DNA of 64,000 nt from the NCBI GenBank assembly GCA_051294905.1, contig CM119378.1, positions 9,424,001-9,488,000 of the forward strand, in the 5' to 3' direction. Made by a program: the position numbers and the translations under genes. Of this stretch, positions 16,238 to 45,450 are shown one piece after another. The notes beneath the pieces were generated by a model. The model was not told the DNA's origin and did no database searches. It was given only the letters and a program-made list of their open reading frames with translations. Source of the stretch: Botryllus schlosseri (taxonomy: Eukaryota). Each line of letters begins with the position of its first letter. The stretch's first letter is position 1.

Positions 16238-17098
16238 TCAGCCCATATTACCACTAGAGGCAGCATGTGATCCATCTACACTGGGTCTCCGTAAAACTAC
16301 CATTCGGGTCGGAGCCTCTGGTCTGTTTGGAAACCTACTGTCTCTACTGGTTGAAGATTCAATATCAAACATCAATGTAGTTTCCGAATTGGTGTTTTTG
16401 ACTAATTGTTTGTCTCCCTCTTTTTTTAACGAGCTTTTAAAGGTTGAATCCGACACTTGGTCAATCGGTAGAATAAAAACGCCTCCCAAATAACCAAACG
16501 TGCTCGTGGACCCGTATGTAAATCTCCATTGTTCTAGATTTCCCCCAAATAGGAACTCAAATTCTGCATCCATCCTACATCTCGTAAAACAAACTGTTCG
16601 CATGTTTTTTGCCCCCCGATATTGTTGTAACAGGAGAGCTATGGCGGTTATTATCGCTTCTGGATATAACACATAAAGCACGATATGTCCTTTATCTCTT
16701 TCAGTGTTTTGGTCTAGTCCTTTGTGCATACTACAAGCCTCTTTCAAATAGTCATGGCATAATGTCATGAGTTCAAAAATCTGCCCGGTATTCTTGAAAT
16801 ACGGTTTTACGTGTCTCATAAGGTAACATTGTTTACATTCACCGACCCCTACCGGGTGAAAAGGCTTTCCTATTTTTATCCAGTCCTCCTTGGTGTACAT
16901 ACTTTGTTGCCAATATTGTACCCTTGGATTGTCCCGCTCACAAGTGCCGAACAAGAGGCCCATCAAACGATCCCGAACCGGCGCAGTTTTTATAGTTTCC
17001 ATTACCATCTGCTGCCTTTGCGTAAGATCGAAATGCATTGCCCACTCGTAGACAACCTTGTGATCCGTATTAGGGTCGCACAACAGCCCGTAGCACAT
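16238..17098 (-). CDS. Accessory protein, family C (~286 aa)
   Basis: MCYGLLCD, NPRVQYWQQ, ERDKGHIVLYVLYPEAIITAIA. ATG at 17098; the ORF track start at 17110 is a TTG. Confidence 0.8.
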   Translation of the reverse strand: MCYGLLCDPNTDHKVVYEWAMHFDLTQRQQMVMETIKTAPVRDRLMGLLFGTCERDNPRVQYWQQSMYTKEDWIKIGKPFHPVGVGECKQCYLMRHVKPYFKNTGQIFELMTLCHDYLKEACSMHKGLDQNTERDKGHIVLYVLYPEAIITAIALLLQQYRGAKNMRTVCFTRCRMDAEFEFLFGGNLEQWRFTYGSTSTFGYLGGVFILPIDQVSDSTFKSSLKKEGDKQLVKNTNSETTLMFDIESSTSRDSRFPNRPEAPTRMVVLRRPSVDGSHAASSGNMG

Positions 17099-17283
17099 TT
17101 CTTTCTTCAATTAGTTCCCTATTTATAACTCTTAAATACAGAAGGTTTCCTCTTTTATTCATACAACTCTCAGTAAATTGTTTCATATTGTAAATCAATG
17201 TGAAACAGAAAATATACATTGGTTAAATTTTTAATCATACAACCTTACCAATCATGTGAGTCCAACAATATGCTAGAATTTAT

Positions 17284-17802
17284 CTAACCATCATCAGGAT
17301 ATGATGTTGTAGGTTGAATTTGAGCGGTAGGTGGCTGTTGCCGAAACATGATACTGCCAAAAGATGTATACGTCCCATCTGACATAACATTGCTATTATG
17401 CGGCAAGTCGTGGCTCGTTGAAAGTGGCGTCAGTAAGGACGTCAAGAAAGGACTACTTGTTGATGTTGAGGAGCTGGTCTCTATTTCTTCCCTTCTATTC
17501 TGTTTGTTTGAGGCAGATTTTCTTTGTGAATATGGTTTTACTTTTGCTACCTCTCGATTTTTTACGTGTTTTCTACGATAGTCATTTCGCCATGGCCACT
17601 CTTTAACTTTTTCATTACTTGCTTTCATCCCTTCGAAGAAGGACTCCGCATAATGTCTAGTTTGATTCTTAATGTCCTTGAAAAAATCATTCCATCTTTG
17701 TAATCTCTCTGTCTTTTTAACCCATCGAAGTTCCTCATACCATAGTTCGATATTCTCAATAGATAGCTCCCATAATTGTTCTTTAGTTATTGAGGCAGAC
17801 AT
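17284..17802 (-). CDS. Accessory protein (172 aa): Trp-rich helical N-half, Ser/Thr-rich disordered C-half
   Basis: Intact ATG ORF in the array; KEQLWEL...WVKKTE weakly resembles family B KEKVWELL...WVKQTD. Confidence 0.7.
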   Translation of the reverse strand: MSASITKEQLWELSIENIELWYEELRWVKKTERLQRWNDFFKDIKNQTRHYAESFFEGMKASNEKVKEWPWRNDYRRKHVKNREVAKVKPYSQRKSASNKQNRREEIETSSSTSTSSPFLTSLLTPLSTSHDLPHNSNVMSDGTYTSFGSIMFRQQPPTAQIQPTTSYPDDG

Positions 17803-18944
17803 TCTTTAATTTACGACACCGTGTTATTTTTACACCTTAAAAATAATAATGTTTCTTTAAGTCGAGATTATTGTAAGATATCGTTAATGATATTCAAAAC
17901 ACTGAATCGTGCTAACTCTTTATTAATCTTACTTGGGGTTAATTATTCCTTTACCGGGTGAAGAAAAGTGTTATCTTTGGCCATTTGTCAGCCTATCAAT
18001 TCTTGATTTCCTCAACTCAGGGCCGGCCAATTCGTGGCCCCCGAGGTAATTTCCGAAATTGCCAATATCTAGAATGGATTGCACTGATTGGGAACTTGCA
18101 AGGTCGAGCAAAATTTATATTTGTTTGGATGTGATGACTAAAATATCTATTCCTACGTATTGGCAGATCCATCAGCCAGTCGCATAATGGTATATTTTTA
18201 TACACTACCATCAAGCAGAATAATTTGCACCAGATACATCAAAAACAAAATTTTCACAAGCTAAACACAATATTTTGCCACACGATTCCTTGTTTTTAAT
18301 ACTGTTGCCCATCTTATGACCATGGAAAAACGGCCAATTTATTCAGACTGAGCCTAACTATACTCGCGATTTCGGACCAAGGTGTCGTTGAACATGTGTG
18401 ACCGTGCGGTTGCGTTTGCGGTAATATTGCTGACTATGAAACCTAGATACGGAAAGATTGACGCATGTTGGCTTTTGTTATTACTATGGCCATGCGCCAC
18501 ATAGCCTGGTCCGCGTAAACTCAGCCTAACGGTGTACGGTAAGCCCGCCACAATGCCAAGTTATAATATCATTGTTCTATGAACTTCAAAAGCTTTTCGC
18601 GCTTCGCGCGGTAGTGGCATGCACAGTATTTCGTCAATCGAATGTGACCTTCGGGCTGAAAAAGATTGCCCAGCCTTGACTAATTCAAACTTTTATTTTG
18701 TATCACATACCATCCTAATTGTTCTCTCTCTCTTAACATCTGCTAAATAACCTGTCATTATTCCATGGTTACACAAAAATTCCCTTTTTCAAACGACAAC
18801 ACAGTCGTCCTCAGTATTTAATTGTTTCACTATGAGGCACAGAAAACACAACATCTCTTGTAACAGTCGCAACGTAATTAATGTACATTTACGATTTTGT
18901 TGATCACATCAATTTGTACATTTTGATCACATAGTTTTCCAATT

Positions 18945-19466
18945 TTACTCGTTATTCCAGGGGCGCCAAAACATTCTATCAAGGCGCCTGAGAGTTGCCT
19001 CGTCAAGAGGTCGTAACTGTTCATGATCTGAGGATGGATCGGAATCGCTACTACTAACACCAGAATCAGTATCGGGTAGAGTATTCAAACTTTCATTCGA
19101 ATCTGTCAAATCACTAGATTCGGAATTCGGATAAGTTCTCAACTCGTGGTCTGGGAAAAGATAGGACTCTATCCAATCATGTCCAGAATCACATCCGGAG
19201 CCAGACAAAATACTCGAACTTTCATCTGAGTCAGTGAGATCTAATTCCGAGTCCGTATCATCTCCCCAGATCGAAGGGTTTCTTTCAAAATAGCTTTCCA
19301 AAGTGGCCTCGTCAATTTCTTGTTCATTTTCCTCATTTTCATCTGCTTCAGGCGATGTTTGGCATGATTTGAGAATTTCATCTATATTTTTTAATACAAC
19401 AATCCACCTTCCAGTCCAGATTTGTTCATCCAGAACAGAGGCTTCCATGGCATCAGAACTTGTCAT
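18945..19466 (-). CDS. Acidic Ser/Asp/Glu-rich accessory protein (173 aa)
   Basis: Intact ATG ORF, same strand as the array; internal repeat ELDLTDSDES / SSDLTDSNES. Confidence 0.7.
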   Translation of the reverse strand: MTSSDAMEASVLDEQIWTGRWIVVLKNIDEILKSCQTSPEADENEENEQEIDEATLESYFERNPSIWGDDTDSELDLTDSDESSSILSGSGCDSGHDWIESYLFPDHELRTYPNSESSDLTDSNESLNTLPDTDSGVSSSDSDPSSDHEQLRPLDEATLRRLDRMFWRPWNNE

Positions 19467-29592: not shown

Positions 29593-31935
29593 CTATCTCA
29601 GTTTTTCATGCAATGTTACTGCTGTAATATACGTCTTTTGGTTATTCCGCCGAACAACCTTTTTAAGATAATTTTTTGCTGCAACTCTCCCGCATTTCGC
29701 ATAACAAAAATACATACATCCTACCATTGTTGTTACGCTAACCGCAAAAATCAAGACATAATTGTTAAGTGATTCTTCTAAATCCTTTCTATTGTTAATA
29801 TCCACAATAATTTTACCTGATGCATATCCTTGTTCTATTTCGTGTAGTTTGTGCAATCGTCCATAGAAGTCAAATGTAATTCGGTCCAATCTGTCATATC
29901 TGGCCGTAGGTAAGGTATGCGGTATACTGAGTGTAGTTTTTCCTTCTTCTTCGATAGAGGGTGTAATTGAAGAAAGTGCACTATTGGAAGTACTCTTCCA
30001 ACTTCTGATCACATCATTTTTACTTACTGATGTGGGATCGCTCTGATAGTCACCTGATGAAAGCATTGACGTTGATTTAGTTCTTACCTGTAGATCTTGC
30101 TTTTTGTTTAAATTATCTGGTTCTGTATTAGAGCGGGACTTGCTGGTGACGAAGTATTGGTGCGTTTCAACTGTCGTTGCTACTTGTGATGTATCAAACA
30201 ACATATTGAAATGCGCTCTTGGCGGTGTCGTGTCCTTGATTTGATTTGCGTGATGACTTAATTGTATGTAAGACTCAGGTATCTGCGTAATTTGGGATGT
30301 TTTCCTTATTGGCACGGATAAGGAGCCTAACATTTCACCATTTTTTGAGGGTATTTGATAGGTCATGGTATTCCATTGTAACCTTGCTTTTACACTTCTC
30401 GCCATTGGTACACGTGTTGTTAACCCACTTTCAGAAAAGGTGACTCCTGTCGTAGCAATACCAATGCTTTTCTGAGTGTCCATCTCTGTTGATATAGCCA
30501 TAGATGGTTCCACAGTTGTGAAAATATCAGTGGGACTCGTCCTGCGTCTTTCTTGCTCACTAACAGTTTTCACTGTAGTTAAGAATGTAATAATAGATGT
30601 AGTTGGTCTTGGGCCGGTGTTATCTTCGCGTGAGGAATGCACAGTAGTCAATATGGCTGGGAGCGATGTCGATGAAGTCGTTTCGGAAATAGCAATAGCC
30701 GATGTCAACCCTCCAGTATCTGGTGTGATTGCAGCAGTGGATAAAGTGGTCGTAATACTATCTGACGTATGTGCAGATGTTTTTGGCGTGGAAATTGTCG
30801 TATCTGTTGTTAACTCAGTCGTATATTGAGTATTTTTAATTGATGTTGGAGTTTCAATCATTGGTAATGCCATTGTAGTTTCAATAATATTTGTAGAATC
30901 CGTAGTATAAGCTATCTGTATGGGCCTATGTTTTAATAAAACATTATATTCTCCGTCTTTGTCATAATAATCGTAGTAGTAATTTCCAGCGTCTTGAAAA
31001 CTAGTATTATCGTCATAACCGGCATAGCTAATTCCTTCGTCGTAACCTTCTATATAATCGTAGTTATAGTGGTTAGTGTCGTATTGATTCGTCATTCTTA
31101 CATTTTCCTCAGTAATTGTTATGGTTTTTACCCGTGTCACAGCGGGTTCTGGAGTCGCTACAACAGAAGTGATATCAACCCATATACCAGTCTCGCTACT
31201 AGGAGGCACTTCTCGAGTGATTCCTTCGTAACTTACAGTCCTTGTCGTTATTGCTTCCGCGTTACTTCGTGGCATTACGGAGCTAGAAGGTACTTTTCGA
31301 GTGGTTCCTTCATAATTTACAGCCTTTGTCGTTATTGATTCCGCGGTACTTAATGGCATTTCAGAGTTAGTTCTGATTTTGTTATTGTCCTTATAGGCAT
31401 AAGGCGTATACACCAATATTCCAGCACATATTGCGGCTGTGTAGGCCACACTTGGTCGGAATATCCGGATATCATGAAACTGCACCTCTATGAGCTTGCG
31501 TGTTGACATATAGCTCAGTAATTCTTCATTTATCCTACTCAATTTCTGAGGTGTCAAGGCTGACCGTAGCGCCTGACTTAGAGACTCCATCTCTTTACCA
31601 GTTATGGACCTGTCCAATCTCCCCAGTTTTCTCCGCATTTTATATATGGGCAAAGATAACTGGCGTAACCGCCGTTTTGTTGCTTCTACGTAATACATTC
31701 CTAGGCGAGCTAGATAATAGTCCATATTCCTTGTATTTTGCCCATAGCTTTTAAATGATGCAGTCAGGATAAAGTCGCCTAATCTACCGGGTTGTTTACA
31801 CTTGGGTAGACTCTTAGGCCATGCTTTGAGGGGAGATTCCTGACCTGCAGGTTTTGGAGATGCAATTCGTAAACGACCATTGCTATGATCTGCATACACG
31901 GGTTGATTTGTATATGGATCACCCAGCAAACACAA
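29593..31935 (-). CDS. Mucin-like membrane glycoprotein (780-codon frame; first ATG at 31725 gives 710 aa)
   Basis: Long Thr/Ser-rich stalk, Tyr/Asp-rich patch, duplicated AE.ITT..V.YEG.TR.VP.SS unit, C-terminal TM (YVLIFAVSVTTMVGCMYFCY) with a basic tail, possible second TM (VAYTAAICAGILVY). The ORF track start is a TTG, so the true 5' end is uncertain. Confidence 0.8.
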   Translation of the reverse strand: MCLLGDPYTNQPVYADHSNGRLRIASPKPAGQESPLKAWPKSLPKCKQPGRLGDFILTASFKSYGQNTRNMDYYLARLGMYYVEATKRRLRQLSLPIYKMRRKLGRLDRSITGKEMESLSQALRSALTPQKLSRINEELLSYMSTRKLIEVQFHDIRIFRPSVAYTAAICAGILVYTPYAYKDNNKIRTNSEMPLSTAESITTKAVNYEGTTRKVPSSSVMPRSNAEAITTRTVSYEGITREVPPSSETGIWVDITSVVATPEPAVTRVKTITITEENVRMTNQYDTNHYNYDYIEGYDEGISYAGYDDNTSFQDAGNYYYDYYDKDGEYNVLLKHRPIQIAYTTDSTNIIETTMALPMIETPTSIKNTQYTTELTTDTTISTPKTSAHTSDSITTTLSTAAITPDTGGLTSAIAISETTSSTSLPAILTTVHSSREDNTGPRPTTSIITFLTTVKTVSEQERRRTSPTDIFTTVEPSMAISTEMDTQKSIGIATTGVTFSESGLTTRVPMARSVKARLQWNTMTYQIPSKNGEMLGSLSVPIRKTSQITQIPESYIQLSHHANQIKDTTPPRAHFNMLFDTSQVATTVETHQYFVTSKSRSNTEPDNLNKKQDLQVRTKSTSMLSSGDYQSDPTSVSKNDVIRSWKSTSNSALSSITPSIEEEGKTTLSIPHTLPTARYDRLDRITFDFYGRLHKLHEIEQGYASGKIIVDINNRKDLEESLNNYVLIFAVSVTTMVGCMYFCYAKCGRVAAKNYLKKVVRRNNQKTYITAVTLHEKLR

Positions 31936-32039
31936 AACTTATTAAAGATATTTTTTAAACATCTTCCATGAGTTCAAAAGATGTCCTTCAATGAAGTGCA
32001 AAATATATACATTTGTCGACAGAAATGGATATATATAAG

Positions 32040-32170
32040 ATGTCCTGTAGGACATCCTCAAAGATATCCTGATAGACATCCTCAAAGATATCCTGATAAT
32101 CATCCTCAAAAATATCCTGATGGAGATCCTCAAAGATATCCTGATAAACATCCTCAACGACATCCTATAA
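32040..32170. repeat. 24-bp tandem repeat (gacatcctcaaagatatcctgata-like), ~5-6 copies
   Basis: Directly visible, just upstream of the mucin-like ORF. Confidence 0.85.
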
Positions 32171-33618
32171 GATATTTTTTGTACAATTCGACCCTGTGTG
32201 ACCCTGAACCCTGGTAGGCTAAACCTGCTATATGCTGCACTTCACACATGAACGAATACGAATCATCAATTTTACAAATCATGTATGGCTTTTTGTTCTG
32301 TATTGTACCAGTTCAAAATACAAAAAAAAAATGCACTGGACTAGACCTCGACGAAGACAGTTCAAAATACAAAAAAAATGCACTTGACTAGACCTCGACA
32401 AAAAATTGGAATAAAAATGGATGAAGAACGAAGGTAAAATAATAGTCCCTGACATAACATACGTTAGCAAGAAATAGGCAGCAAGAGGTAGGCCTTTTTG
32501 TTCAGAAGGAAAACTAATTGCCAATTTTAAAAATCAGCATGTATATGGCTTTTTGTTCTGTATGAAATCAGTACAAAACACTAAAAAATACATGGATGAA
32601 GAAAATACGTTAGCAAGAATTGGGCCTTGATACAGAACTGTGCAATCACTTCAGCCAATACTTCTGCCTCCTCGATAACAGTCTTGCTCCTGTTTTCTCC
32701 TTTATCGTCGTCCTATAACAGAAATGAATTGATTACTTTGATTGATTAGCAGTAGAGCAATAGTCATTATATGTGTTTGTTCGTGAGTAATGTGGGACGG
32801 TCATGTCAAGTCACATTCATCCAAGGATTCCGATCCGTCTTTAGGAAGTCACGACGAACTTGGTGGAGTGCGACAGCCAAGTCAAACTTTACCATCTACT
32901 TCGACAAAATTGTCGATTCAACTCTGCGCGCCAAATTTGGCTTAATTCCAACATATAGAAGCTGATAAACCAGGGGTTCTCAGCCATCTATTGGCCGTGC
33001 CCCATTTTCGGGTTTGAAAATGTTCTTGAGACCAATCTCTTACCACAGAGTAGAGTCGTAGTCCTTTTCAATGTGTGGTAATCGCCACCACCAATTTGCA
33101 TATTTCTCTATTATAAGCACCTTTTTATCTTACTAATCATATTTAAATGTAGACCTACAGGGACAAAAAATCGCGCAAAGCACGACAAAAATCTACTTCA
33201 ACAAACGACAAACAAAGTAATTTTGGGTTCAGTCGAGCTCCCCTAATTGGGCGTTTGAAGATGGCCCTGGAAGATCGTATAACTCATCGTTATCGCTCTG
33301 GGCCAGCTTCAAACATTTCTTTGGTGAACGGGATACTATAGCTAGCTGTAAAATGTACCTAATATATATACCAGCGAAGTTTCAAATCCCTAATTTTGTA
33401 TCTCAATTTGACATCTACACGTTGGAATTGAGCCATATTTGCCATGCATCTTGTTCGCCACCGAAATAGCCGACCCAATGCTCCCTCTAATTTTTGTCAA
33501 GTCTGCACACACTCACCAACTCACAGTAGTGCATAACGACTAAAAAAATGACATCACTTCAGATTTGTTCTGTGCGCAGAGACCAACTAAGCACTGCGCA
33601 ATTGCGCACATGCGTAGT

Positions 33619-34271
33619 AGGGCTCTTCAAAAATGACTTTTTTTCTCAAATCGTACTGGCTACTTGATAAAATTGTTAGGTTACCTAATTTAAGCCTACA
33701 CACAAAATTTGGTTCAATTCCAGCCAGTAACCGCTTTGCTACAGGAGAAGTAAGTTTCTATTTATTATGTAAAAATAAATAATAAAAAATTTGAAAATTT
33801 TCTGTTCACCCCATGAAAGTGTTGGGCTGTCTATAGAAACGATGCTCACCAAATTTGGTTCAATTCAAACCAGTGGAAGCGGAGTTATTGCTGTCGAAAA
33901 ATTTGGATTTGAATAAAATAGTATTTACGGTGACCGATTCTTTGTTCATTTATTAAAGTTGTGCTCACCGTAAATACTATTTTATTCAAATGAGAATTTT
34001 CCGACGGCAATAACTCCGCTTCCACTGGTTGGAGTTGAACCAAATTTAGCGAGGGTCGTTTCTATAGACAGACCAACACCTTCATGGGGTGAACAGAAAT
34101 TTTTTTATTATTTATTTTTACATAATAAATAGAATCTTACTTCTCCTGTAGCAAAGCGGTTACTGGCTGGAATTGAACCAAATTTTGTGTGTAGGCTTAA
34201 ATTGGGTAAAATAACAATTTTATCAAGTACCCAGTACGATTTGAGAAAAAAAGTCATTTTTGAAGAGCCCT
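33619..34271. mobile_element. Foldback/palindromic MITE, ~650 bp
   Basis: Arms of ~310 bp are near-perfect reverse complements (agggctcttcaaaaatgac...gtcatttttgaagagccct). Confidence 0.85.
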
Positions 34272-37200
34272 AGTGCGCAGTGCAGCTTAGAGTGAACATG
34301 GGTCAGGCAATAGTAATCTGAGCCCCCCACGCGGTACGAATACGACCAGTTGAGGATGAACTTGCTTCCCGTGTAGAAATGTGAATTGAAAGGAGTTTGA
34401 AATGAGTGATGGATTATTGGCAAAAAAGTTTTGGAGACATTGGTTCCACCGCTAAAGCTGAGCAAGTGTAAAGAGATGATCAAAAATTTATGTAAGCAAG
34501 ACCAACAATTTTGACAAAATTAAATGACTATAACTTTTTTTTTAAATTACATCACGTCAAAGTTTGGGAACCACTGGTATAGTGTTCTGAAGATGAATGG
34601 TAGCGGCCCTTGAGGTAGCAACGATTCACTTACTGTCAAATGATATGATAAAGAACGCAGCTGTCACACAGACGTCAGATTCATAAACAAAATTACCTTG
34701 CAAGCTCCAAGAACAGTTAGAAATCGTCCCACTTTGGTTGTAATTGTTGTACTCTCGGCCGTAGGATTAGCCACTTTACATGCTCCTTCAAAGATAATAT
34801 AAGTAGATCAGGGGCTGCATTACAAAACAATGCGGCAAATCGGAATCTCCGCCAGTGGTAACAATCTTTCTCGAATGTGATCACCCCATAGTGTCAAAAT
34901 TGGCATTTCAAAACATTCCCGACTCAACACCGAGTTGCGCAATTAACGCACTTGCTTGTGATTTTGCCATGTCGGCAATGTCAGTAGAAAATGATTTCAA
35001 ATGAGGGCTTATAAGGCTGTGTGGTCAGCAACGATTTGCAATTTAGCTGTGATCTTTCACAAGAAGGGAAAGCAAAATACTTTAACTCTGTAAAAATGCT
35101 CCCGAAGGCATTGTTATCGAGGGTTTTGTAATCTCGACTGTAATATCAGTAACAACTTACGTGTAATAGTCTTGTAAAGATTAAAATTTTGAAAACTTCT
35201 TTTTTGTCCATTTTTGCTTCTTTGACCTTTTAGGCTGAACAATTGCCACACATCTTTTACAGCTATGCTTGTCATGATATTTCTGACCGTTGAAGCCAAT
35301 TGTTCACCGTAAAGTCCTTTCAGAGCAGATACCTGTAGTACAAAATACAAATGGCTCTGCCTTACGATAGTGGTGTGTACCAGAATGAAAAATAACTAGA
35401 TCAGCCCAAAAATAAGTAGGGTTTCGATATTTTTCGAATTCACTAATATAGCATTAATTCATCATGGTAAAGTACATGCAAAAATGACGATTATACCCCC
35501 AAACCCCCCTCTGGCTACGCGCCTGCATAAACATCAAATAACTTGATGGAACGTTGATCTTGACGAGAGGTTAGATCAGGGTGGGCAACTTCTCCAGTCG
35601 GCAGGCCGGATATAGGAAAATTAAGTACTTGGGCACCGGATTGCTGAATCGATGCATTATTCGTCCATTTATCCACAAGGAATATATCGTATTTAATGAA
35701 TGTCTTTCAACGACAGCAATGTCACTTCGAAGCCATTTCTCGCCGATAATGGCGAATACAATGTGGATTTGAGAATAACATTGTCATGTAGGCAATCTCG
35801 ATACAGAATTCATGCGGCCTGCGTCCTCTACCAAATTCGAAAAGTGGCCTGCAACCCATTTTGAGTTGGCGCCCCTGGCATAAGCGGTGCCTTACAAAAA
35901 CCTAGAAGTGTGCCGTGCTCCAAGTCGGCGGTTACGGAATCAAAAATAGGAAATATCAGCCTGCTGACCATTGTAGTCGACAAAAATCATGATTACTACA
36001 GACCACATTAGGTTTGATTGCATCGTTAATGCCGATAATGCAAGTCTTCTCGCTTCAACGAACTTACGCATAAGCTCCACTCTCGCAACGCTGCGCATAC
36101 ACGTATAATATAATAACATAGTCACTAAAATTTGACGTAGTAAGGAATTAGTGGGGAATCTCGGCAAACTGGGGCGGGGCATTATCATGTAGGACAGAGA
36201 ACTGCCGGCGGGCCGGACAAAATCACTTCGCGGGCTGTATGCTGCCTGCCCCTGGGTTAGATACTCCACCTAAGTTTGCTCTAATCGACAAAATCATACC
36301 AGTTCAGATTTCTTGCAATCGCCGTCAGTCAAGTTCTTTTCCAGTTGTTCCAGCTGAGATACGGTTTGACAGGGGTTTTCAATAAGATCTTCAGCAAGAT
36401 TGGGGCTGTTGTACTGTGTTTATTTTTTTTTCGTTGATGATGTGACCTTTAATTAGATCCATCATCTGTTTCATCTGCTTGGAGCTGAGGTCCATCATCT
36501 GGTTCATCTGCAACTTGATGTCTTTACGCATCAGAGAAATATACAGAGTGGTCATTGTGTGCAGATGTTGGAGTTGATGAAGAACATGGAGGAGCTTAAA
36601 AAATTATTTGAATTCAAGAAAACTGGATTGATCATATGCGATAAACTTACCATTACTTTGTGATAGGCCTTGTTGTTGACAGTCAGAATTTTGCAGTTCA
36701 ACATTGCTTACAAATGAAGGATCGTCTGGAAAATAGAGCGACTCTATTGCTTAAATTCGAGAATGAATCAAAGTGTTGGGAGCTTACTGCATTAGTTGAT
36801 TCCCTGCAACTGGCCGCTACATTCAATGTTGGGATCATGCTGTTCTTGAACACTCTCCTCACTTGATGATGGCAAACTTGCATTTGAAGCATCATTAACA
36901 AGAGCACTCTTGCTTGTCACACTTTCATCGCCAGAATCAGGAGGTGACCGCACTCTTGGAGTTGGTGTAGGCATGCCTTGTGTCTGAATACTTGGATTAC
37001 GTTTTTTCTTTGAAGGAACAGCATCATCTACAAAGTATGAAAGTTATACATATATCACTTCTGCGTATAACATATTAGGCAGAATAACAGTGTACGCTAT
37101 ATACCTTGATTATCAGATGACATGGACTTGTAAAAAATCTTTTGGCGGCTGACGTTTTCGGTTAGGGCAGGCTATTATTGTCTGCAACTGCCCTCATATC

Positions 37201-37419
37201 ACGAAAGGCCTTGACCCATAAATCTAAAACAGATGGATAATATAGATGGTAAGTTTCCAGATTTATCAAACTACTGGATTTGTAAACAGCGCAACTAGAT
37301 CTAGAATTACTCAAATTTGAAAACTCGCACAAACTTGAAAAAACGATATTGTATCGCACACGCAAACATAGAACTGCTAGGTAATGAACCACTGTACGCA
37401 AGTAACGGTATATATAGCT

Positions 37420-37812
37420 TAGTGGTTCCCAACCTTTTTCGGTGTCAGGGCCAAATTTAGAATTTCAGAGTATATTGTTGGGGCCGCACGAATTCGTGAC
37501 TGCTTTAGATCAATAAAAAGTTCACAAAATAGAGTAAAATCGAGGAGAACTGCTGCTGGGTTTTGCCTCAGGGGGCTCAGCGTATTCAACCGTGAGTCAC
37601 GTGTTGTACATCTATTCGTAGATTAGTTATCAATACCTATATACAGTAGTTAGCACTCTACTCAGAACTTTTCTGCAATCCTAATTAACAACTCCAAGCT
37701 AAGCAAGAGAATTTTATAAATATAAATTTTATTTTATATCATAAATCGATTTCTTTAAATTTTTGTGGGGGACGCAAGACGGCTAGCTCAAGGCCGCGGT
37801 TGGGAATCACTG
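37420..37812. mobile_element. hAT-type MITE
   Basis: Ends tagtggttcccaacc / ggttgggaatcactg; 8-bp TSD atatagct / gtatagct. Confidence 0.75.
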
Positions 37813-39041
37813 GTATAGCTACATGCTACAGTCTCATTTTTGTCATGATTCAAGCCATCCCAACACTGGTACTAATGAGTAACGGTAAACCTTCACAAAT
37901 TATGAGTTGACTTACCGGATGAGCATTTGATACGTATTTTGTACAGAGTCCAATTGCCCGTGTCATATTTCACTTGATGATGATGAAGCGACCCGTCCCG
38001 CCAAATCGGCGGTTCTAGCTCGCTTGAACCGTAGCCACTCTTTATGGTACTGCCTACGTCTGTGCTTCCCCGTCTTATTTTATATCTGGGCATTACGGTA
38101 CCACGTTGTAGCTGAGCTCCCACTACACTATTATAGACAAAAGTACAAGAACATTCGATCACAATGAATGATTTTAGCGACCAACATCTGATGATATTAT
38201 ATAATCCAGCACTGTCACAATAGCTTATAAGATATTCGCAAAAGTGCAAACCAAGTTCTATACTTTGTGACATTATACCATACACTATACCTATGATTCG
38301 TATCAAGCATATATAAATTACCATCTACAGCTCAGTTTTCAGTAATCCTCTTAAGGAATATGGTTGTTTGAGCCTTAATTTACCACGATCAATTCCAGAA
38401 CGCAACTAAACCTAACATACGACTGCGTAGCTGTAAGCCTCCATTACTCCATTACGAGAGCGCTTTATCTGTCAGTATTTCGCGCCGAAACTTATGTGAA
38501 CTCGCAAGGGAGAAATGGCCTCTCGTTTACACTCCGGATCAGAAGCCGGAGTCGTAGCAGGATTTCAGCCGGACTGGATGCGGATTCTGAATTAATTTCG
38601 ACAGTCGGATTTTGGCAACATTCTTAATTATAATCTTAAATACGATATCATTATTTTAGCAGAAGTTTTTTGGACGCAGAACCGGAAATTCTCCAGCCGG
38701 ATTCTGTGGACTTTCAAATTTCCTTCCAAAATTTGGGAACCGACCAATTCCAATCAAATACAACCCAACCACCGAAAGCAGCGGAGGTGGCGGAGCGCGA
38801 GGATGCGGGCTAATATGACATTTAATTTTAGTCTGCAAAATTGCAAGAAAGAGCGTGACACTAGGTGGAACATACGGTAGTGACACAGGTGATTAATCGC
38901 CCCATGAGAGTAAAAGTTCAATAAAATCTACTGTACATTTATAAACACCACTCTACCATAATAGGAAGCAATAATCGAATTTGATATTCCTAACAAATAT
39001 ATTTTCAGCATTCGACAAAATTTGGCCAAGAAAAGTTGTGG

Positions 39042-39585
39042 TTCAGCACAAGGTATGCACATAGCAATTTACAACGTAGCTACGTTGCAAATTGCTATGG
39101 TATGCACAGGATATGATTTGGACTTGACTGGACAAGAACAAGATATATTTAAGCCGTGCTTCAGCACAAGGTATGGACAAGATATGATTTGGACTTGACT
39201 GGACAAGAACAAGATATATTTAAGCCGTGCTTCAGCACAAGGTATGGACAAGATATGATTTGGACTTGACTGGACAAGAACAAGATATATTGATGTCGTG
39301 CTTCAGCACACAAGGTATGGACAAGATATGATTCAGACTTGACTGGACAAGAAAAAGATATAGGTAATTCGTGCTTCAGCACAAGGTATGGACAAGATAC
39401 GATTTGGACTTGACTGGACAAGAACAAGATATATTTAAGTCGTGCTTCAGCACAAGGTTTGCACAAAGATATGATTTGAACATGACTGGAGATGAAAAAG
39501 ATATATTTAAGTCGTGCTTCAGCACAAAGCATGCACAAGATATGATTTGAACCTGGCTGGACAAGAAAAAGATATCCTGACAGGT
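39042..39585. repeat. ~71-bp minisatellite, ~7 copies, directly after the stop codon of the secreted SU-like gene
   Basis: gtgcttcagc recurs at 39156, 39227, 39298, 39371, 39442 and 39514. Confidence 0.9.
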
Positions 39586-40767
39586 TCAAAAGACATCTAG
39601 TGTTTGCTGGGCATATAACACTTCCTTAAAGGCCAATGCCGTCTTTAAATTTCCTATTGAATTTCGACAAACCTTTTGATTTTTTTTACGTTCACATTCT
39701 ATGCTGCCTTGCAACATAGTCGGAAAATTTCTCTTCCCCATTATCCGTTGAGTATCATTATTCAGATGTTCGCGGAGGGCGTAAATCCTCAATCTAAACC
39801 AAGTATGACCATCAAAGTTTGCTGGCCTCTCCCTGGGGCCCGTCTCATTTCGAGCCTTCAACCACACGATGTCGTGATGTAATCTGGGTAATTTGACTCC
39901 CGCTGGCCATTGACTGTAGGAATAAGTTTCTTGCATTCTCGTCCCTAATCCTCTTATGCTATTATCTATTTCCATGACCACAAAGTCTCTGGACAGTATA
40001 TTTACTGCCAGATCATCTGTATAAAATGAGCATCCTATGCATTGCATCTGGTTGTCTTCTCCGTGCACACATACGTTAAATTCGCCTTTATTGACTCTCC
40101 ATCCCGCGATTTCTTCGAAACGCTGCTGACACCTTGCTGTCACTGTTGCATATTGTGCCAAGATATTCATCACTGATAACTTGTACACCGTCAACAGTTG
40201 ATGTATAGTAACTTGTGGAGTAGCATTAGGAGATATCATCCGAAGGATCGGACCTGGCACAGCCATAGTGCCATGTTCTTCCCTTCCTACCACATACTTC
40301 CATGTATGTACTAAGCCAAAGTTATTCTTTCGACGATATGTTGTGGTTCTGGTAAAGGCTGCCAAAGTAATATCGGGAGATATTCTTGATAGTTTCCGAT
40401 TGCACCCGCACTCTCTTTCGTATTGTCTAACATTGTTCCAATACCTCTTGTCAGACCCCGAGGGTGCAAATAACTTGTACAATTGATCTTGGCTAGCTCG
40501 TGTTGGACCAAATTTGGGCGTCTCTTTGTATATTGGAAAATTATTTTCCGTTTCACCTATTGGCCAACTCTCGTTCAATTTGAATAGTCGATTAAGGCGG
40601 ATGTATCTGAGACCTTGATACCGGAACGTTGTCCATCCTGTAAGATTAAATGTTAACCTCACACTCATAGCAGACAGGGGCAATAATTGGCCATGAGTTT
40701 GAAGATATCCTCGGTGTAGTGTTAAGGCTACTGCCAGCACAATCCATAATTTAAGGTAACGATTCAT
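39586..40767 (-). CDS. Secreted paralog of the Env surface subunit (393 aa)
   Basis: Signal peptide, no TM. RYWNNVRQYERECGCNRKLSRISPDIT matches Env RYWTSVQDFERTCLCQRRLGQITPNIS, and KLSVMNILAQYATVTARCQQ matches KLIMIRLFESYSAVEASCLQ. Confidence 0.85.
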   Translation of the reverse strand: MNRYLKLWIVLAVALTLHRGYLQTHGQLLPLSAMSVRLTFNLTGWTTFRYQGLRYIRLNRLFKLNESWPIGETENNFPIYKETPKFGPTRASQDQLYKLFAPSGSDKRYWNNVRQYERECGCNRKLSRISPDITLAAFTRTTTYRRKNNFGLVHTWKYVVGREEHGTMAVPGPILRMISPNATPQVTIHQLLTVYKLSVMNILAQYATVTARCQQRFEEIAGWRVNKGEFNVCVHGEDNQMQCIGCSFYTDDLAVNILSRDFVVMEIDNSIRGLGTRMQETYSYSQWPAGVKLPRLHHDIVWLKARNETGPRERPANFDGHTWFRLRIYALREHLNNDTQRIMGKRNFPTMLQGSIECERKKNQKVCRNSIGNLKTALAFKEVLYAQQTLDVF

Positions 40768-40854
40768 ATTATTATAAATTAGTTAGTATATCTGTGGACT
40801 TATGAAAAATTTTTAATTAATAAAAGTAAAATCCTTTGAGTACATATGCGTGCA

Positions 40855-43371
40855 CTACATTCTTGTCGATTTGGCTGTTTTAACGGGGGTCGATACCGAT
40901 GATATGTGCATTGTCAACTGAGTATTCGTGTTTCGCCGTTGTACCTCAGTTTTTAACTTAGGACAGCAAAGACTGCTATAACGACAGCCACAAAACAAGA
41001 CGATCCCGGCCCCCAATATCAAAATTACTGGAATTAGAACAGACCCCAGGCCGGAAAAAATTCCGCTCACTCCCTTATTGAATATTCCTCCGACCGCACC
41101 TAATCCATCTTGTAGAAGATCTCCTGTGCTATCTCCTACTGATTTTATCAAGCTTCCTACACCGTGTGTCATGTCTTCTATCGTTTGGCCCAAGTTATTC
41201 ATAAATTCTTCTCCTCCAACAAATTCGAAAGGCTTAATTGTAATATTCTCATATCGCCAATCAGAAATATTCATGTACACACTCTTATTTAGATCTTTTC
41301 TCCAAACTTGTAAACCCAAATCCACACTCTGTTGGGCTTGATCTAGACTGATTCGGTTAGCACGTAGCTCTACCCCAATGTCATTCGTCTCATTGATGTA
41401 AGCGTCTCTATAGGCTATTAATTGCTGAGCGTGTTCTTTTATCCGCAGCGTTCCTTGTCGGATTTTTGTGAGATATACTTTGCTGGAGTCGAATATTAAC
41501 TTGCCAGTTAAATTAGCCAACTCGTCCAAAACCAATCGATCAAGGGCCAGTTCAGCTTCGCTCATTTCCTTATAGTTTTGAAAAGAGGTCAGGGATGCTG
41601 TGGCTTGTCGTACTATCATTTGTCGGTTTCTTTCTATGTACTTTTCCATTAGTACAAGTCGTTTATTTGTTAACGTTGTCCTCATTTCCATGGTAGCGAT
41701 CGTTTGATCCAGTTTCTGTTGTTGGGCTATTTGCAGAAGAGAGAGTTCGTTAATCTTTCTCCCTAGTGCAGTGGACCTCTGCGTGGCCTGTATCATTCTA
41801 TTATTGATTTGTCGGCTAAGATCCAATGTTTCTTCATGTAACTGGGATGAAACTGTCGCAACGACGGCGATCGCTGATATCGCAGCAAAAACGAGACATA
41901 TCAGTCCTGACAGGAACCTTTTACGCCTTCTACGCGTACCCCGTGGGGCGGTATTACTTGATACCAATTCACCTTTAATTTCTATTGGTCCCCCTGGGAA
42001 GCGTGGTCGGTTTAGCTCCGGATCAAAATGAACATGGTCCCAAAAGGCTGCCTTCAAAATGCGTCCTCCTACAGGGTCGCGGCACAAATCCTGGTTATGT
42101 GATATTCTATTTTTACATGCTTCATCCGATGCAGTAAGAGAGGGGAAGAATTTCCACATAGGCCTGGGAAAAGGTACCCATGTTGATGTAGACGCCTTAA
42201 ACCTAGTCGGCGCACCATCAAAAAGGTTATTCCACCTCATGCCCTGATTGCCACGATTAGCATACACACTGTGATCCAAATTTGGAAAAGACGGTTGTAT
42301 CCATTTTACTCTGGGAGGAAAATTTGTCGTTGGTAGATCACCCCATATAGTGGTATTCATTCCTGGCCAGAAATTGCACGAATGGGCTATTACACCACCA
42401 TCAGGCCAGAAGTGCTCAAACCAGTACTGATTAATCCATCCCCCCTGGGCCCGGCATGGAATGAACTTATTGCGCATATACGGCCATGTACTTATTGTAG
42501 TCATTACTATTTCTTGGATGATTATATCTGCCTTATTTGGTTCCAGAGCAGAAATCACTCCTCTAAAATTACACCTTGTACAGATTCCTTTTCTGACCCC
42601 TTTTACCCTCCAAGAGTGGTATTGTTGCCAAAAAACACTATGGGAGGCATAATCTTTATCCACTAGATGCCAGCATTGTGTAAAACTATTGCTACTGGCA
42701 TTATACTTATTTAATTCACTTAATTTTTCTTTGTCCCCGTCTCTCATTGGCTCTTGAAGACATGAGGCTTCAACAGCTGAATAACTTTCGAATAGTCGTA
42801 TCATAATCAATTTAAATTTGGTTAGAGCAAACATGGAGTAATTCCTGCCAAGGTCATGATACCAGTAATAGTCCCCACTCCAGAACCAGCGAATCCTATA
42901 ATACCCTATTGGACGTATGAACATGTTTGTTTGTTTAAGAACATCATAGGAAATATTGGGCGTGATTTGGCCCAGGCGCCGTTGACAGAGACAGGTGCGT
43001 TCAAAATCTTGTACACTTGTCCAATATCTTCCATGTGGAAACGCCATTTGTTGTAATGAAAAACGCTCAGCTACTACGTAACCAAATGACTTGCTGTAAA
43101 ATAGTTCAGGCCGTCTATATACATGTCGCTCCGCCGTTTTGTTGAAAATGCTCATCAAGTGATAGTCCTCCCATTGTGTATCATTTAGAGTGATCCATTC
43201 TTCAGGCAGGGGTCCCCGTAGTTCCCCTAGCGTCCCCTGAGTGAAAGACCGTGCCCTACTTGTTACAGGATCTGCAAGTCCGTGCATGCCTTTCGCCGCC
43301 GTATGCAGCACCAAATCAGACGTACAAATGATACCAACAAGGATAGACAGAGAATAAGGAAGGATGTCCAT
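40855..43371 (-). CDS. env: Envelope glycoprotein, class I fusion type (838 aa from the Kozak ATG at 43371)
   Basis: Signal peptide, Cys/Trp-rich surface subunit with many sequons, furin site RRRRKR (41934-41917) followed by fusion peptide FLSGLICLVFAAISAIAVVA, heptad-repeat helices, Gly-rich membrane-proximal helix, TM and a Cys-containing tail. Confidence 0.88.
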   Translation of the reverse strand: MDILPYSLSILVGIICTSDLVLHTAAKGMHGLADPVTSRARSFTQGTLGELRGPLPEEWITLNDTQWEDYHLMSIFNKTAERHVYRRPELFYSKSFGYVVAERFSLQQMAFPHGRYWTSVQDFERTCLCQRRLGQITPNISYDVLKQTNMFIRPIGYYRIRWFWSGDYYWYHDLGRNYSMFALTKFKLIMIRLFESYSAVEASCLQEPMRDGDKEKLSELNKYNASSNSFTQCWHLVDKDYASHSVFWQQYHSWRVKGVRKGICTRCNFRGVISALEPNKADIIIQEIVMTTISTWPYMRNKFIPCRAQGGWINQYWFEHFWPDGGVIAHSCNFWPGMNTTIWGDLPTTNFPPRVKWIQPSFPNLDHSVYANRGNQGMRWNNLFDGAPTRFKASTSTWVPFPRPMWKFFPSLTASDEACKNRISHNQDLCRDPVGGRILKAAFWDHVHFDPELNRPRFPGGPIEIKGELVSSNTAPRGTRRRRKRFLSGLICLVFAAISAIAVVATVSSQLHEETLDLSRQINNRMIQATQRSTALGRKINELSLLQIAQQQKLDQTIATMEMRTTLTNKRLVLMEKYIERNRQMIVRQATASLTSFQNYKEMSEAELALDRLVLDELANLTGKLIFDSSKVYLTKIRQGTLRIKEHAQQLIAYRDAYINETNDIGVELRANRISLDQAQQSVDLGLQVWRKDLNKSVYMNISDWRYENITIKPFEFVGGEEFMNNLGQTIEDMTHGVGSLIKSVGDSTGDLLQDGLGAVGGIFNKGVSGIFSGLGSVLIPVILILGAGIVLFCGCRYSSLCCPKLKTEVQRRNTNTQLTMHISSVSTPVKTAKSTRM

Positions 43372-43500: not shown

Positions 43501-44427
43501 TTACAAATGTGGTAATACAGGGGACCCCTCAAATTTGTCAAAATTATACCGTGGATCATTGTGTATGGTGCGCAGGAGTGCCAAGAATCGGTCAGTCTTT
43601 TGATGTTGACGTTTCCACAAAAACTCCCCTACGTAATCGGCTAAAAGGTGACGTGCTAAACCACGAGACCTATGTAAGTGATATTTAAGCTGTCCCCAGG
43701 CCCCCTCGATTTCATTAGTACAAAAAGCTGTCCGGGGATCTTTAAACCATCGGGAGTGGTCCACTACGCCGTGTATATAACCCTTCCCCCAGCTCTCTAT
43801 GCCCTTGTAGGAAGGATAAGCATCGGTTAGAATTGTGGACCCCTCTGTCACATTTTCTACTATGAGTTTTCGAAATACTTCAGCAGTTCTGTCAGAAGTT
43901 ATTTCAATGAACATTTCTCCGGTGGCTTTGTCTATTCCTCCAAACCCCCAAATGGCTTTAACAGCTGGTCCTTTACCAGAGGCAGCCCGGCGCTTGGCTA
44001 AGTGCGTTTCATCAATAATTACGCAACCGCCTTCCTTTCCCAAACGTCGCTTGTTCCTGTGAAATTCGGCCGTACAAAGCTTTCGCAATTTGCCGCACCA
44101 GGTAACCGTTGAACGTGGGCTAATCTCAGCTTCATGCGAAATTTGGGTTTGCAACGCGTCATGGGACCAAAAGTAGAACAATATTAATAATTTGGGAAGT
44201 TCTACCTTGCTTCCCGCGAATATCGAGTGTTTCCGTATAGTCGCCGTAGTGTCACAGGGGTTGCATCGCCACCTAAATCCATCATCGCCTGTTGACGTAA
44301 TTTCCTCTTTCATTATTTTTTTACATCGCTTGCATTTCATCCTTCGCACCAACAACCCGTGATTTCTCAGAAATATCACACAATCCCGTGTGTTTAGCAA
44401 TGCACCCGATTCGACCAAACTCAACAC
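43501..44427 (-). CDS. Second IS1595/ISXO2-like (Merlin-type) DDE transposase (~308 aa)
   Basis: CKRC...WRCNPC, IIDETHL / LTDAYPSY / TNEIEGAW, YVGEFLWKR. GTG start; similarity to 11483-12430 extends upstream (DTRKRT versus ESRKRK), so the true start is uncertain. No TIRs seen. Confidence 0.88.
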   Translation of the reverse strand: MLSLVESGALLNTRDCVIFLRNHGLLVRRMKCKRCKKIMKEEITSTGDDGFRWRCNPCDTTATIRKHSIFAGSKVELPKLLILFYFWSHDALQTQISHEAEISPRSTVTWCGKLRKLCTAEFHRNKRRLGKEGGCVIIDETHLAKRRAASGKGPAVKAIWGFGGIDKATGEMFIEITSDRTAEVFRKLIVENVTEGSTILTDAYPSYKGIESWGKGYIHGVVDHSRWFKDPRTAFCTNEIEGAWGQLKYHLHRSRGLARHLLADYVGEFLWKRQHQKTDRFLALLRTIHNDPRYNFDKFEGSPVLPHL

Positions 44428-44719
44428 ATTGTATGTTCTTTTCCGCGTATCTGCGCAAGTAAATAATACGACATGTGGCGTCGATCAACTCCCCATCGTC
44501 TTTGGCGGATCAAACCCCCCTTTTTCTTGGCGTTTCATGTGTACTGACTCTCTCCTATTTTAATCCCGTGTTATTCCTATGACAGGGTTATTTTTTTCAC
44601 TTGTTCCTTACCAGGCCTAATGATTTTTTCACCCTCATTTCAATGTACATGCAAAACACTTACTATCCCACTACACACCCATTTTATGGTGCAACAACTA
44701 TTGCCGCCTAGACCTCCGG

Positions 44720-45450
44720 GCACTTATTTCACAAGTACCAAAAGAAGATTATGTTCACTTTCCTGGTGGAGAGTAAACCTCTAGTACCAGCACTATACCT
44801 TTGTAACTGTGATACGAAATTTAATCACTGAATTTCCGTGCTTTTCCGACATTCGTTCTGTACAAAATAAATTCTGACTACTCAGTACTCGGTTTAATGT
44901 GAGCGCCAATACCGTTGCCTGAAAATTTCAAATGGGCCCTTTTGAAATGCGATGCAGTTGAATTGAAAGACAAATTTCATACAAAGAGCATATCGCTGCA
45001 TGACTTTGACAAAGAGTACGTTCTTGAAATAGGTCTTTATCCCAGCTTGACCAACAATGCAACAGAAATGGCATCGACTTTTGATAGCACGTACGCATGT
45101 GAAAAATAGTTTAAAACAATGGAATTCACAAAGAGCAAGCTAAGATCACGTATTCTAATGCCCATTTAGAATGTGATGGTCTGATTGTTGCTTCATCTGA
45201 CTCGCTATTAGAAGTTGAAATTCTTTCATAAAGCATGTTGCGACAAGTGTCACATTTATGCTGCGTTGTTGAAGTGTAAATAAAATATATGTGTTTTGCC
45301 CTTTTTGTGATTTGTATGATTGAGATTGCAGCAATGTAGGGTACTAAACCGACGTGAGCGTTAAATATAGTATCAAGAAAAAATCCGGCCCGCCAAAAAG
45401 TTGTGCACTCGGAATTTGGCCCGCGACTAGCAAAAGGTTGCCGACCCCTG
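44720..45450 (+). mobile_element. 5'-truncated hAT (Charlie/SPIN-like) transposon remnant
   Basis: Decayed transposase C-terminus (HFP...NLITEF...STFDSTYACE..FKTMEFTKSKLRSR) and a right end ggttgccgacccctg. Confidence 0.75.

Follow-up and report, generated by a model that had tools for sequence, protein, structure and literature searches.

The window analysed here, a 64,000-nucleotide stretch of the Botryllus schlosseri genome, carries on its minus strand an 838-aa ORF, Env1, and downstream of it a 393-aa ORF that resembles the N-terminal half of Env1 (Table 1). The pair belongs to a ~40-kb element with gag-pro-RT-RNaseH-Tpt1 genes, an IS1595/Merlin-type transposase, terminal inverted repeats (TIRs) and 8-bp target-site duplications (TSDs). 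An earlier note on this DNA had taken the 393-aa ORF for a complete gene, created by duplication of env and dedicated to a secreted decoy, entry cofactor or receptor blocker.

Table 1 Features of the window, in the order in which the minus strand is read
Feature	Position	Strand	Details
8-bp target duplication	44740-44747		same 8-bp flank at far end G000:C8:9421117
Left TIR, imperfect, 23 bp, starts GG	44717..44739	-	pairs with far end G000:C8:9421117
IS1595/ISXO2 (Merlin-type) DDE transposase, 279 aa from first ATG	43501..44340	-	open frame to 44484
Env1, 838 aa	40855..43371	-	hydropathy and motifs
393-aa ORF	39586-40767	-	385 Env2 codons, then 8 codons and the stop from the inserted transposon
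5' piece of Env2, 385 codons	39612..40767	-	signal-peptide-like start and SU-like head, 8 Cys
Inserted DNA transposon, 7,690 bp	31922..39611	-	junctions, TIRs, TSD
3' piece of Env2	29593..31921	-	matches the 3' part of uninterrupted sister env2 genes at 97-99.5% identity
Intronless accessory gene block	5245..19466	-	Pfam
Gag-like ORF, 946 aa, CCHC zinc knuckle	938..3778	-	PF00098, E = 5e-4
Pol start, protease-like motif by eye	1..845	-	continues left of window

Env1 comprises an N-terminal hydrophobic segment, a surface domain (SU), a polybasic furin-type site at ~480-485, a hydrophobic fusion-peptide-like segment (486-504), a helical ectodomain whose heptads were judged by eye, and a TM segment (778-796). 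With its cleavage site, putative fusion peptide, helical ectodomain and C-terminal TM, it has the architecture of a class I fusion protein, and the cleavage site and following hydrophobic segment recur in all full-length Env1 copies listed. Its best weak matches are foamy virus Env, spike and F: the PDB sequence search gave a TM-segment match first (E = 0.003) and foamy virus Env only at E = 0.093, while ESM feature scores to spike/F proteins were 0.89-0.90, at low recognition. Neither Env1 nor Env2 matched Pfam. One report describes foamy virus Env as a class Ib fusion protein and foamy viruses as having no separate attachment protein (PMC11468914).

BLASTP aligned the 393-aa ORF with Env1 at E = 6e-10 (22% identity over 172 columns, including the motifs quoted in the earlier note). 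A local alignment scored 115 against a shuffle mean of 38.5 and maximum of 62 (500 shuffles; z = 15), a global alignment gave z = 9.5, and 8/8 Cys of the ORF pair with SU Cys of Env1. Profile-profile comparison of the Env2 head and Env1 SU family alignments (12 + 12 copies) returned a probability of 100% and E = 1.7e-41 over 322 columns, that is, the whole SU. The proposed similarity to the N-terminal half of Env thus extends well beyond short motifs. The ORF also lacks, as had been said of it, a furin site and a TM: RxK/RR sites are absent, and nowhere does a 19-residue segment exceed a hydropathy of 1.5. Residues 7-17 form an 11-residue hydrophobic stretch that is signal-peptide-like, judged by hydropathy alone.

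The TM is missing because a transposon was recently inserted, at this one locus only. The rest of env2 lies 7.7 kb downstream of the 385-codon piece. The inserted DNA has 12-bp perfect TIRs beginning CCC and a 2-bp TSD, together with subterminal tandem repeats and a spliced minus-strand gene, seven GT..AG introns of which are seen in RNA; its five short ORFs contain no transposase domain, and we take it from its hallmarks to be CACTA/EnSpm-like. BLASTN alignments break at 39612/31921 in 6/6 close sisters, and the junction pattern occurs once in the genome, at the window locus. Elsewhere in the genome there are 14 matches to the transposon end (98-99% identity), and both of the other copies checked at both ends are flanked by 2-bp TSDs. 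The closest sister differs from the window at 1/2,517 bases of env1 and 1/1,155 bases of the 5' env2 piece. The insertion is recent. Beyond the cut, ~10 residues are still homologous to SU; the 3' piece then continues with a conserved ~170-aa post-head segment with two more Cys, an acidic Tyr-rich stretch, a Ser/Thr-rich mucin-like stalk, and a TM helix followed by a short RRNN-containing tail. In one element copy, a DNA transposon entered env2 and left a 385-codon piece without an anchor.

In sister copies 97-99.7% identical, Env2 is a type I protein of 1,160 aa whose mucin-like stalk leads to a TM helix near residue 1106, so the 393-aa ORF is not a complete gene. It is a broken env2 allele, the front third of a membrane-anchored protein. 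Nor does the census favour a gene dedicated to a secreted product: env2 is uninterrupted at 46/63 loci in the genome assembly, a TM helix ends 23/23 intact copies examined, and the 15 broken loci examined, the window locus included, stop at 15 different points. Across the 63 loci, with 23 intact and 15 broken copies examined, no complete TM-less Env2 ORF is conserved. Caution is thus advisable, as an apparent ‘soluble Env’ in one window can be a transposon-cut allele.

Intact Env2 ranges from 713 to 1,564 aa, with a Ser/Thr-rich stalk of variable length (S+T 33%), and lies directly 3' of Env1 in every subfamily examined. The copies examined share neither a conserved cleavage site nor a fusion-peptide-like segment. 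These features show intact env2 to encode a type I membrane protein in which the SU-like head is complete and a TM helix precedes an Env1-like cytoplasmic RRN/RNN tail. A HMMER search yielded 36 related proteins, among them the Env2-type P0132 from another data set (722 aa), whose C terminus likewise consists of a TM-like segment and a tail. A word-index search found no long Env2 relatives among 5,606 candidates, and there were none in the viral contigs or in the metagenome contigs searched. For the SU family the PDB sequence search gave nothing below E = 0.4, and the ESM Atlas gave no usable match for the Env2 head. It is improbable, in our judgement, that a protease sheds the SU-like head of membrane-bound Env2 as a soluble decoy or cofactor, a process that would arrive at the function proposed in the earlier note by a different path. 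Several copies do have RxK/RR sites 60-100 residues past the head (L049 at 456, L055 at 475, L056 and L057 at 479), but these sites are not conserved, and there is none in the 1,160 aa of the window subfamily, in L053 or in L060.

The env genes are nearly silent in four RNA runs (3-13% of each was read), with a per-strand depth over 39971-43276 that never exceeds 0.8 in a bin. The env2/transposon junction is touched by none of the 15 joints shown (10 more are not shown). The four runs, from individuals that may lack the truncated allele, thus give no sign of transcription of the truncated piece at any level. The allele is probably a young, silent pseudogene.

Soluble, anchorless SU-type products do exist; Ebola sGP is one, and derives from the GP gene itself. 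In combining a signal peptide (by hydropathy) with SU but no anchor, the truncated allele resembles Refrex-1, FeLIX and primate truncated ERV Envs, and like the Refrex-type products it stems from damage to a proviral gene. The soluble Env restriction factors described so far are truncated proviral env genes themselves (PMC9245640). Their products are expressed, secreted and known to act, whereas the window piece comes from the second gene, at one locus, with almost no RNA. That this single allele has turned into such a restriction factor for the host is therefore highly improbable, even though the SU-like domain is cut only close to its end, so that none of the 8 Cys is lost and the signal-peptide-like start is spared. 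The locus is very young, the cut leaves homologous residues and the conserved post-head segment on its far side, no shown joint lies at the junction, and the other 14 broken loci each end at a different residue.

The proposed origin by env duplication, for its part, is supported by the profile match, by a tree and by the tails. In the tree, a quick version with long branches, 21 Env2 heads lie on one side of a branch and 27 Env1 SUs on the other (SH-aLRT 96). At the DNA level, BLASTN detected no similarity of the 5' env2 piece to env1, and the duplication is therefore not recent. The Env2 and Env1 tails align by hhalign with a probability of 89.7 and E = 1.9e-6. The score, 38.7, exceeds both the best of 60 column shuffles (15.0) and the value on reversal (13.1), but the match takes in the TM segment, which may align through composition. 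R-N is invariant in the tails of 12/12 Env2 and 12/12 Env1 copies. At the level of sequence comparison, these results show that Env2 originated by old tandem duplication of env1. Clear matches to Env1 are confined to SU and TM/tail and do not extend over the whole ectodomain. The idea that Env2 retains part of the Env1 TM-subunit ectodomain was considered and is unproven: the post-head segment reached a probability of 30 and a score of 17.1, under the shuffle maximum of 21.6.

dN/dS was 0.14-0.38 in the Env2 head (13/15 pairs computable), 0.35-0.88 in the stalk and 0.08-0.46 in Env1 SU, the last indicating purifying selection. No region was clearly above 1, a single tail value of 1.32 resting on dS = 0.014. 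As judged from these ratios and the alignments, Env2 is an ancient duplicate of env that purifying selection maintains. Between subfamilies the Env2 head diverges more than Env1 SU (identities of 0.39 v 0.56, 0.38 v 0.67, 0.51 v 0.66 and 0.50 v 0.54), whereas some comparisons within subfamilies place the greater divergence in Env1 SU (0.85 v 0.95, 0.80 v 0.92 and 0.68 v 0.83). In the subfamily L092/L093, Env2 and Env1 cluster with different partners in the tree, as expected if Env2 were an exchangeable host-contact module.

The element that carries the pair starts at the left TIR point in all 20 copies compared (L021-L040), and 16/16 end pairings have a duplication, exact and 8 bp long in 15 and 9 bp long in one. 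Its transposase matches Pfam PF12762 at E = 8.6e-10 (39.3 bits; cut-off 27), and lies upstream of env1 in divergent subfamilies too; PF12762 is above cut-off in two ORFs of the element. The second, ISXO2-like ORF belongs to the accessory block, alongside an E2 ubiquitin-conjugating enzyme, an IAP (3 BIR + RING), an LRR protein and several unassigned ORFs; the block is collinear with a sister copy on C4 at 90-98% identity. The Gag-like ORF scores 20.5 bits with PF00098, slightly below the cut-off of 20.8. Left of the window, Pol continues with RT (YIDD; RVT_1, E = 1e-17), RNase H (E = 1e-19) and a Tpt1/KptA domain (PF01885, E = 2e-10), followed by the right TIR; a protease is indicated by an RVP match in the relative P0004. 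Pol has no integrase, the Tpt1 domain being followed by the element end, and PF00665 was listed in 0/9 close Pol relatives, eight of which were rescanned without finding one. There are no LTRs, as no direct repeat links the element ends and no internal self-match exceeds 88 bp.

The element thus combines features of several groups. It resembles Merlin/IS1595 (IS1016, ISXO2) in its ISXO2-like DDE transposase, short TIRs starting GG and 8-9-bp TSDs, the last two being the Merlin hallmarks reportedly given by Feschotte in 2004. It differs in its ~40-kb length and in its cargo of gag, pro, RT and RNase H, a pair of env-type genes and numerous accessory ones. Like Retroviridae and Metaviridae (errantiviruses), it has gag-pro-RT-RNase H and env, and its closest named RT relatives are of Ty3/gypsy type (22-29% identity). 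Unlike them, it lacks LTRs and integrase, has env upstream of gag and ends Pol in Tpt1. The apparently intact RT suggests that the element does not move purely by DNA cut-and-paste without an RNA intermediate. Teratorn, a herpesvirus joined to piggyBac, sets the conceptual precedent for viral integration through a DNA transposase. Membership of the Kuafuorterviruses was rejected: those have LTRs, integrase, an I/V/LADD motif and a length of 5-6 kb (PMC11673190), and the present element has neither LTRs nor integrase, a Pol ending in Tpt1 and a length of ~40 kb. No description of it was found in the literature searched, a scope that left out most subscription journals and Repbase; as far as these searches reached, it stands outside described retroelement families.

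We give about an even chance (roughly 50%) to the reading that Env2 is a putative attachment protein beside the fusogen Env1. Cell entry would then be divided between two proteins, as in paramyxo- and pneumoviruses. Env1 would be cleaved and would fuse membranes; Env2 would hold its SU-like head, for binding the receptor, clear of the membrane on an O-glycosylated stalk, and the common tail motif would sort it to the budding site of Env1. The proposed split recalls the furin-cleaved class I F of those viruses and its dedicated attachment protein, of which RSV G is mucin-like. In paramyxo- and pneumoviruses the attachment protein has type II topology and no relation to F, in contrast to Env2, a type I protein paralogous to its fusogen. 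The conserved head, the Env1-like tail, the mucin-like stalk and the divergence of heads between subfamilies speak for this division of entry. Against it, no particle is known and Env1 SU is sometimes the more divergent within subfamilies. Env1 keeps a full SU under purifying selection, and may therefore still bind the receptor itself.

Rhabdoviruses offer a matching arrangement. Ephemeroviruses and Ngaingan virus carry a tandem duplication of the fusion glycoprotein G, whose downstream copy, GNS, is a class I TM protein that is apparently non-fusogenic, and curiovirus U3 is a partial duplicate of the G N-terminal region (PMC4334499, PMC4624662). Env2 is likewise a fusogen paralogue, encoded directly downstream, with type I TM topology. 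Rhabdoviruses differ in being negative-strand RNA viruses with an unrelated fusogen, and GNS keeps the conserved Cys set of G, whereas Env2 keeps the SU half only and has gained a mucin-like stalk. BEFV GNS, the best-studied duplicated viral glycoprotein, is reported to be absent from virions (PMC4624662), which counts against a division of entry between Env1 and Env2. Env2 might, like GNS, be a non-virion accessory glycoprotein that occupies the receptor on the producer cell (superinfection exclusion) or whose mucin stalk shields the cell. The G-GNS-like position (PMC4334499, PMC4624662), the intact SU of Env1 and the carriage of host-control genes such as IAP and E2 fit such a role, but the Env1-like R-N tail motif retained in Env2 fits shared sorting, and the Env1-Env2 order is constant in every subfamily examined; we regard it as rather unlikely.

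Gene duplication is described as rare in RNA and reverse-transcribing viruses, and the three retroviral cases that one survey lists include none of env (PMC7967035). An env paralogue maintained without the fusion machinery and with an added mucin-like stalk would show an attachment protein evolving from the surface domain of a fusogen. Tentatively, and with less confidence than we attach to the role of Env2, we suggest that these elements may represent an undescribed lineage of enveloped reverse-transcribing animal viruses that integrate by a Merlin/IS1595-type transposase in place of integrase and LTRs and enter cells with two proteins from a duplicated env, a fusogen and an exchangeable, stalk-mounted SU. 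With dozens of natural copies in at least six subfamilies, this two-protein model is testable. If true, it would provide a direct example of a fusion-plus-attachment system derived from a single Env.

Both the flagged 393-aa ORF and the 838-aa Env1 ORF are present where the earlier note had placed them. BLASTP aligns the two over 172 columns at 22% identity (E=6e-10), and the motifs that the note had quoted in aligning the ORF with the N-terminal half of Env fall within this alignment. The local alignment score of the pair is 115, as against a mean of 38.5 and a maximum of 62 in 500 shuffles, and 28-38 for the 393-aa ORF with six other window proteins. All of its cysteines (8/8) pair with cysteines of the Env1 surface domain (SU). 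Family alignments of 12 Env1 and 12 Env2 copies correspond along the entire SU, 322 columns (probability 100%, E 1.7e-41). No DNA-level similarity was found between the two ORFs. Judged by sequence comparison, the SU homology is real and old. Env1 itself is classed as class I-like, provisionally, from sequence layout and weak leads. A motif and hydropathy check found neither a furin-type site nor a TM-length hydrophobic segment in the 393-aa ORF, as the note had stated.

What did not stand is the 393-aa ORF as a whole gene, as it is part of a 1,160-aa gene cut by a transposon. Its sequence recurs at 30 other loci of the same genome (G000, 495.5 Mb searched, in which the window occupies C8:9424001-9488000) at 77-99% identity, mostly within open frames of 1,118-1,189 aa, and env2 of the sisters examined encodes 1,160 aa with a TM helix near residue 1106, at the end. 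In BLASTN against the window, 6/6 close sisters break off at 39612 and resume at 31921. The gap corresponds to an insertion of 7,690 bp, whose inverted ends are perfect over 12 bp and which is flanked by a 2-bp target duplication. Duplications of 2 bp also flank two further copies for which both ends could be compared, and elsewhere in the genome an end of the insertion is matched 14 times at 98-99% identity. The insertion contains a spliced gene evidenced by RNA. These features are CACTA/EnSpm-like hallmarks; no transposase domain was found in five short ORFs. The final 8 residues of the 393-aa ORF, together with its stop, derive from the insertion, and the junction occurs once in the whole genome. 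The flagged ORF is a broken env2 allele. Env1 and the env2 5' piece each differ by one base from the nearest sister, so the window copy is young.

The secreted protein Refrex-1 is encoded by truncated ERV env genes (PMC9245640), and a similar exaptation of this truncated allele appears very improbable for a young copy with a single-occurrence junction. RNA reads (four runs from three studies, 3-13% of each read, mapped on 28400-44900) fall nearly all on the inserted transposon. Three of the runs have zero depth at 40522-43276, and the fourth reaches 0.34 in a single bin; depth is at most 0.8 per strand on the env2 5' piece (39971-40521) and at most 0.87 on the 3' piece, and no joint across the env2/transposon junction was found among the 15 of 25 joints listed. 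Such low depth is weak evidence of silence, since tissues are unspecified and the sampled individuals may be without this allele.

Genome-search rows for env2 (env1 rows set aside) were sorted by open frame and cross-checked with a second search, giving at least 63 loci, a lower bound, with 17 of them broken. The 15 broken loci examined each end in their own, different stop residue; a TM-coding frame follows downstream in 10, and none was seen in the other 5 within the 10-kb stretch. Besides the window copy, one broken locus, L097, retains a 374-aa SU-only piece, and env1 of the same copy is broken too. The dedicated secreted gene proposed in the earlier note is excluded by the 46 uninterrupted loci and by a single C-terminal TM helix in 23/23 intact copies checked; on the sequences at hand, no secreted gene exists across the family. 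P0132, a 722-aa protein from another data set, likewise has an Env2 head, a TM-like segment and a tail; the contig on which it is recorded equals in length that of the Env1-type P0121.

Intact Env2 copies range from 713 to 1,564 aa, with the variation residing in the stalk; the anatomy was described on the sister locus L043 (see table). The TM helix and tail resemble those of Env1 (profile probability 89.7; score 38.7, with shuffles reaching at most 15.0), with an R-N pair invariant in 12/12 Env2 and 12/12 Env1 tails. This points to duplication of the whole gene with the fusion machinery replaced; profile comparison and shuffles gave no similarity above chance to the Env1 TM-subunit ectodomain. 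Env2 is shown, at the level of predicted features, to be a membrane-anchored Env1 paralogue with a shared tail. That it is a shed decoy seems improbable. In the comparison of intact copies, neither a cleavage site that is conserved nor any segment resembling a fusion peptide was found.

Origin by env duplication was borne out by the whole-SU match and by a 48-row tree (a quick search, long branches flagged), in which 21 Env2 heads fall on one side of one branch (SH-aLRT 96), placing the duplication before all sampled subfamilies. dN/dS, calculated with our own NG86 script for 15 pairs that are not independent of one another, is 0.14-0.38 for the Env2 head and 0.35-0.88 for the stalk (13 computable pairs), and 0.08-0.46 for Env1 SU and 0.06-0.15 for the Env1 TM subunit (12 pairs). 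Together these show Env2 to be the product of an old duplication, kept as a protein under purifying selection. In 4/4 pairs drawn from different subfamilies, conservation is lower in the Env2 head than in Env1 SU; the order is mixed within subfamilies, where unequal dS between the neighbouring genes suggests recombination. The two genes of loci L092 and L093 have different partners in the tree: Env1 groups with the L056/L060 subfamily and Env2 falls on the side of L043/L049/L053, so that the second glycoprotein may have been swapped. Among distant Env1 relatives, P0127 and P0129 have long N-terminal extensions, one EGF-like by eye with a single EGF domain match; these are perhaps another route to an attachment module.

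Features in the window and at related loci
Feature	Position	Strand	Remark
Env1 ORF, 838 aa	40855-43371	minus	
Flagged ORF, 393 aa	39586-40767	minus	
Env2 signal-peptide-like hydrophobic stretch	L043, residues 7-17		
Env2 SU-like head	L043, up to ~residue 395		
Env2 conserved segment, ~170 aa	after head		two further Cys
Env2 acidic Tyr-rich stretch	between ~170-aa segment and stalk		
Env2 stalk	L043		Ser+Thr 33%
Env2 TM helix, short basic tail	C-terminal end		
Gene in inserted transposon	32711-37916	minus	multi-exon; spliced in 4/4 RNA runs
Inverted-repeat element, ~640 bp	33611-34279		in inserted transposon; absent from two other copies
Further transposon copy	L115:1008-8378		within long ORF resembling Bel/Pao-type retrotransposon gene by eye
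~40-kb element	1-44739 and L041:7117-10000		Merlin/IS1595-type transposase, TIRs, 8-bp TSDs; env upstream of gag
Tpt1/KptA RNA 2'-phosphotransferase domain	L041:7390-7900		Pol end; PF01885, E=2e-10
Second ISXO2-like transposase ORF, 315 aa	11483-12430		E=3e-17; among accessory genes; kept in C4 sister
IAP (3 BIR + RING) and E2 ubiquitin-conjugating enzyme	5245-10329		intronless
ORFs of ~130-150 aa	at 5245, 5861, 7652, 8053		mutual paralogues by eye
ORFs matching PWP3A-B_C (PF20886)	12500-13006, 16238-17098; L058:204-2622		several ORFs, two subfamilies; E 1e-2 to 1e-8
89-aa ORF	3787-4056		hydrophobic segment at N-terminus; 8 bases separate its end from gag start codon
ORF-poor ~9 kb	19500-29500		no ORF >112 aa, yet ~98% identical in C4 sister; spliced genes or RNA elements may lie here
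Two right ends	G000:C5:10285872 and 10299821		14 kb apart; 8-bp flank common with one left end; either tandem duplication or assembly duplicate

Both env genes belong to the ~40-kb element, over which similarity between copies runs from 44739 to G000:C8:9421117, left of the window. Its ends are imperfect 23-bp inverted repeats; 21 left and 19 right ends give 16 pairings by position (15 distinct left ends), with exact 8-bp target duplications in 15 and a 9-bp one in the other. Copies span 23-54 kb, most of them 37-40 kb (47,623 bp for the window copy including the insertion), and the C4 sister is collinear along the full length. The gene order is an ISXO2-like transposase, env1, env2, a ~9-kb stretch lacking long ORFs, a set of accessory genes (IAP, E2, LRR and the second ISXO2-like ORF), and then gag, pro, RT, RNase H and Tpt1. 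Neither an integrase (domain scan of Pol) nor LTRs (repeat comparison of the ends) were found. The close Pol group comprises nine database proteins at 35-50% identity, with an integrase domain listed for 0/9 and a Tpt1 match in 7/8 rescanned. Two of the nine are recorded on contigs equal in length to those of Env relatives, which makes it probable that other genomes contain the lineage too. A literature search, with most subscription journals and Repbase outside its coverage, found no description of the element, which may be of a new kind.

For the Env1/Env2 pair the nearest precedent comes from the G/GNS pair of rhabdoviruses, in which the duplicated TM glycoprotein is expressed but absent from virions (PMC4624662, PMC4334499). 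By this analogy Env2 could be a non-virion surface protein, which we regard as possible if rather unlikely. A survey of RNA-virus duplications names three retroviral cases, none of them env (PMC7967035). Foamy Env has a core in common with paramyxo- and pneumovirus F; its receptor-binding domain is part of Env itself, whereas in paramyxo- and pneumoviruses a separate protein has this role (PMC11468914). Our main reading, held at a probability of about 0.5, is that Env2 would present its SU-like head on a glycosylated stalk for attachment, and that Env1 would carry out membrane fusion beside it.
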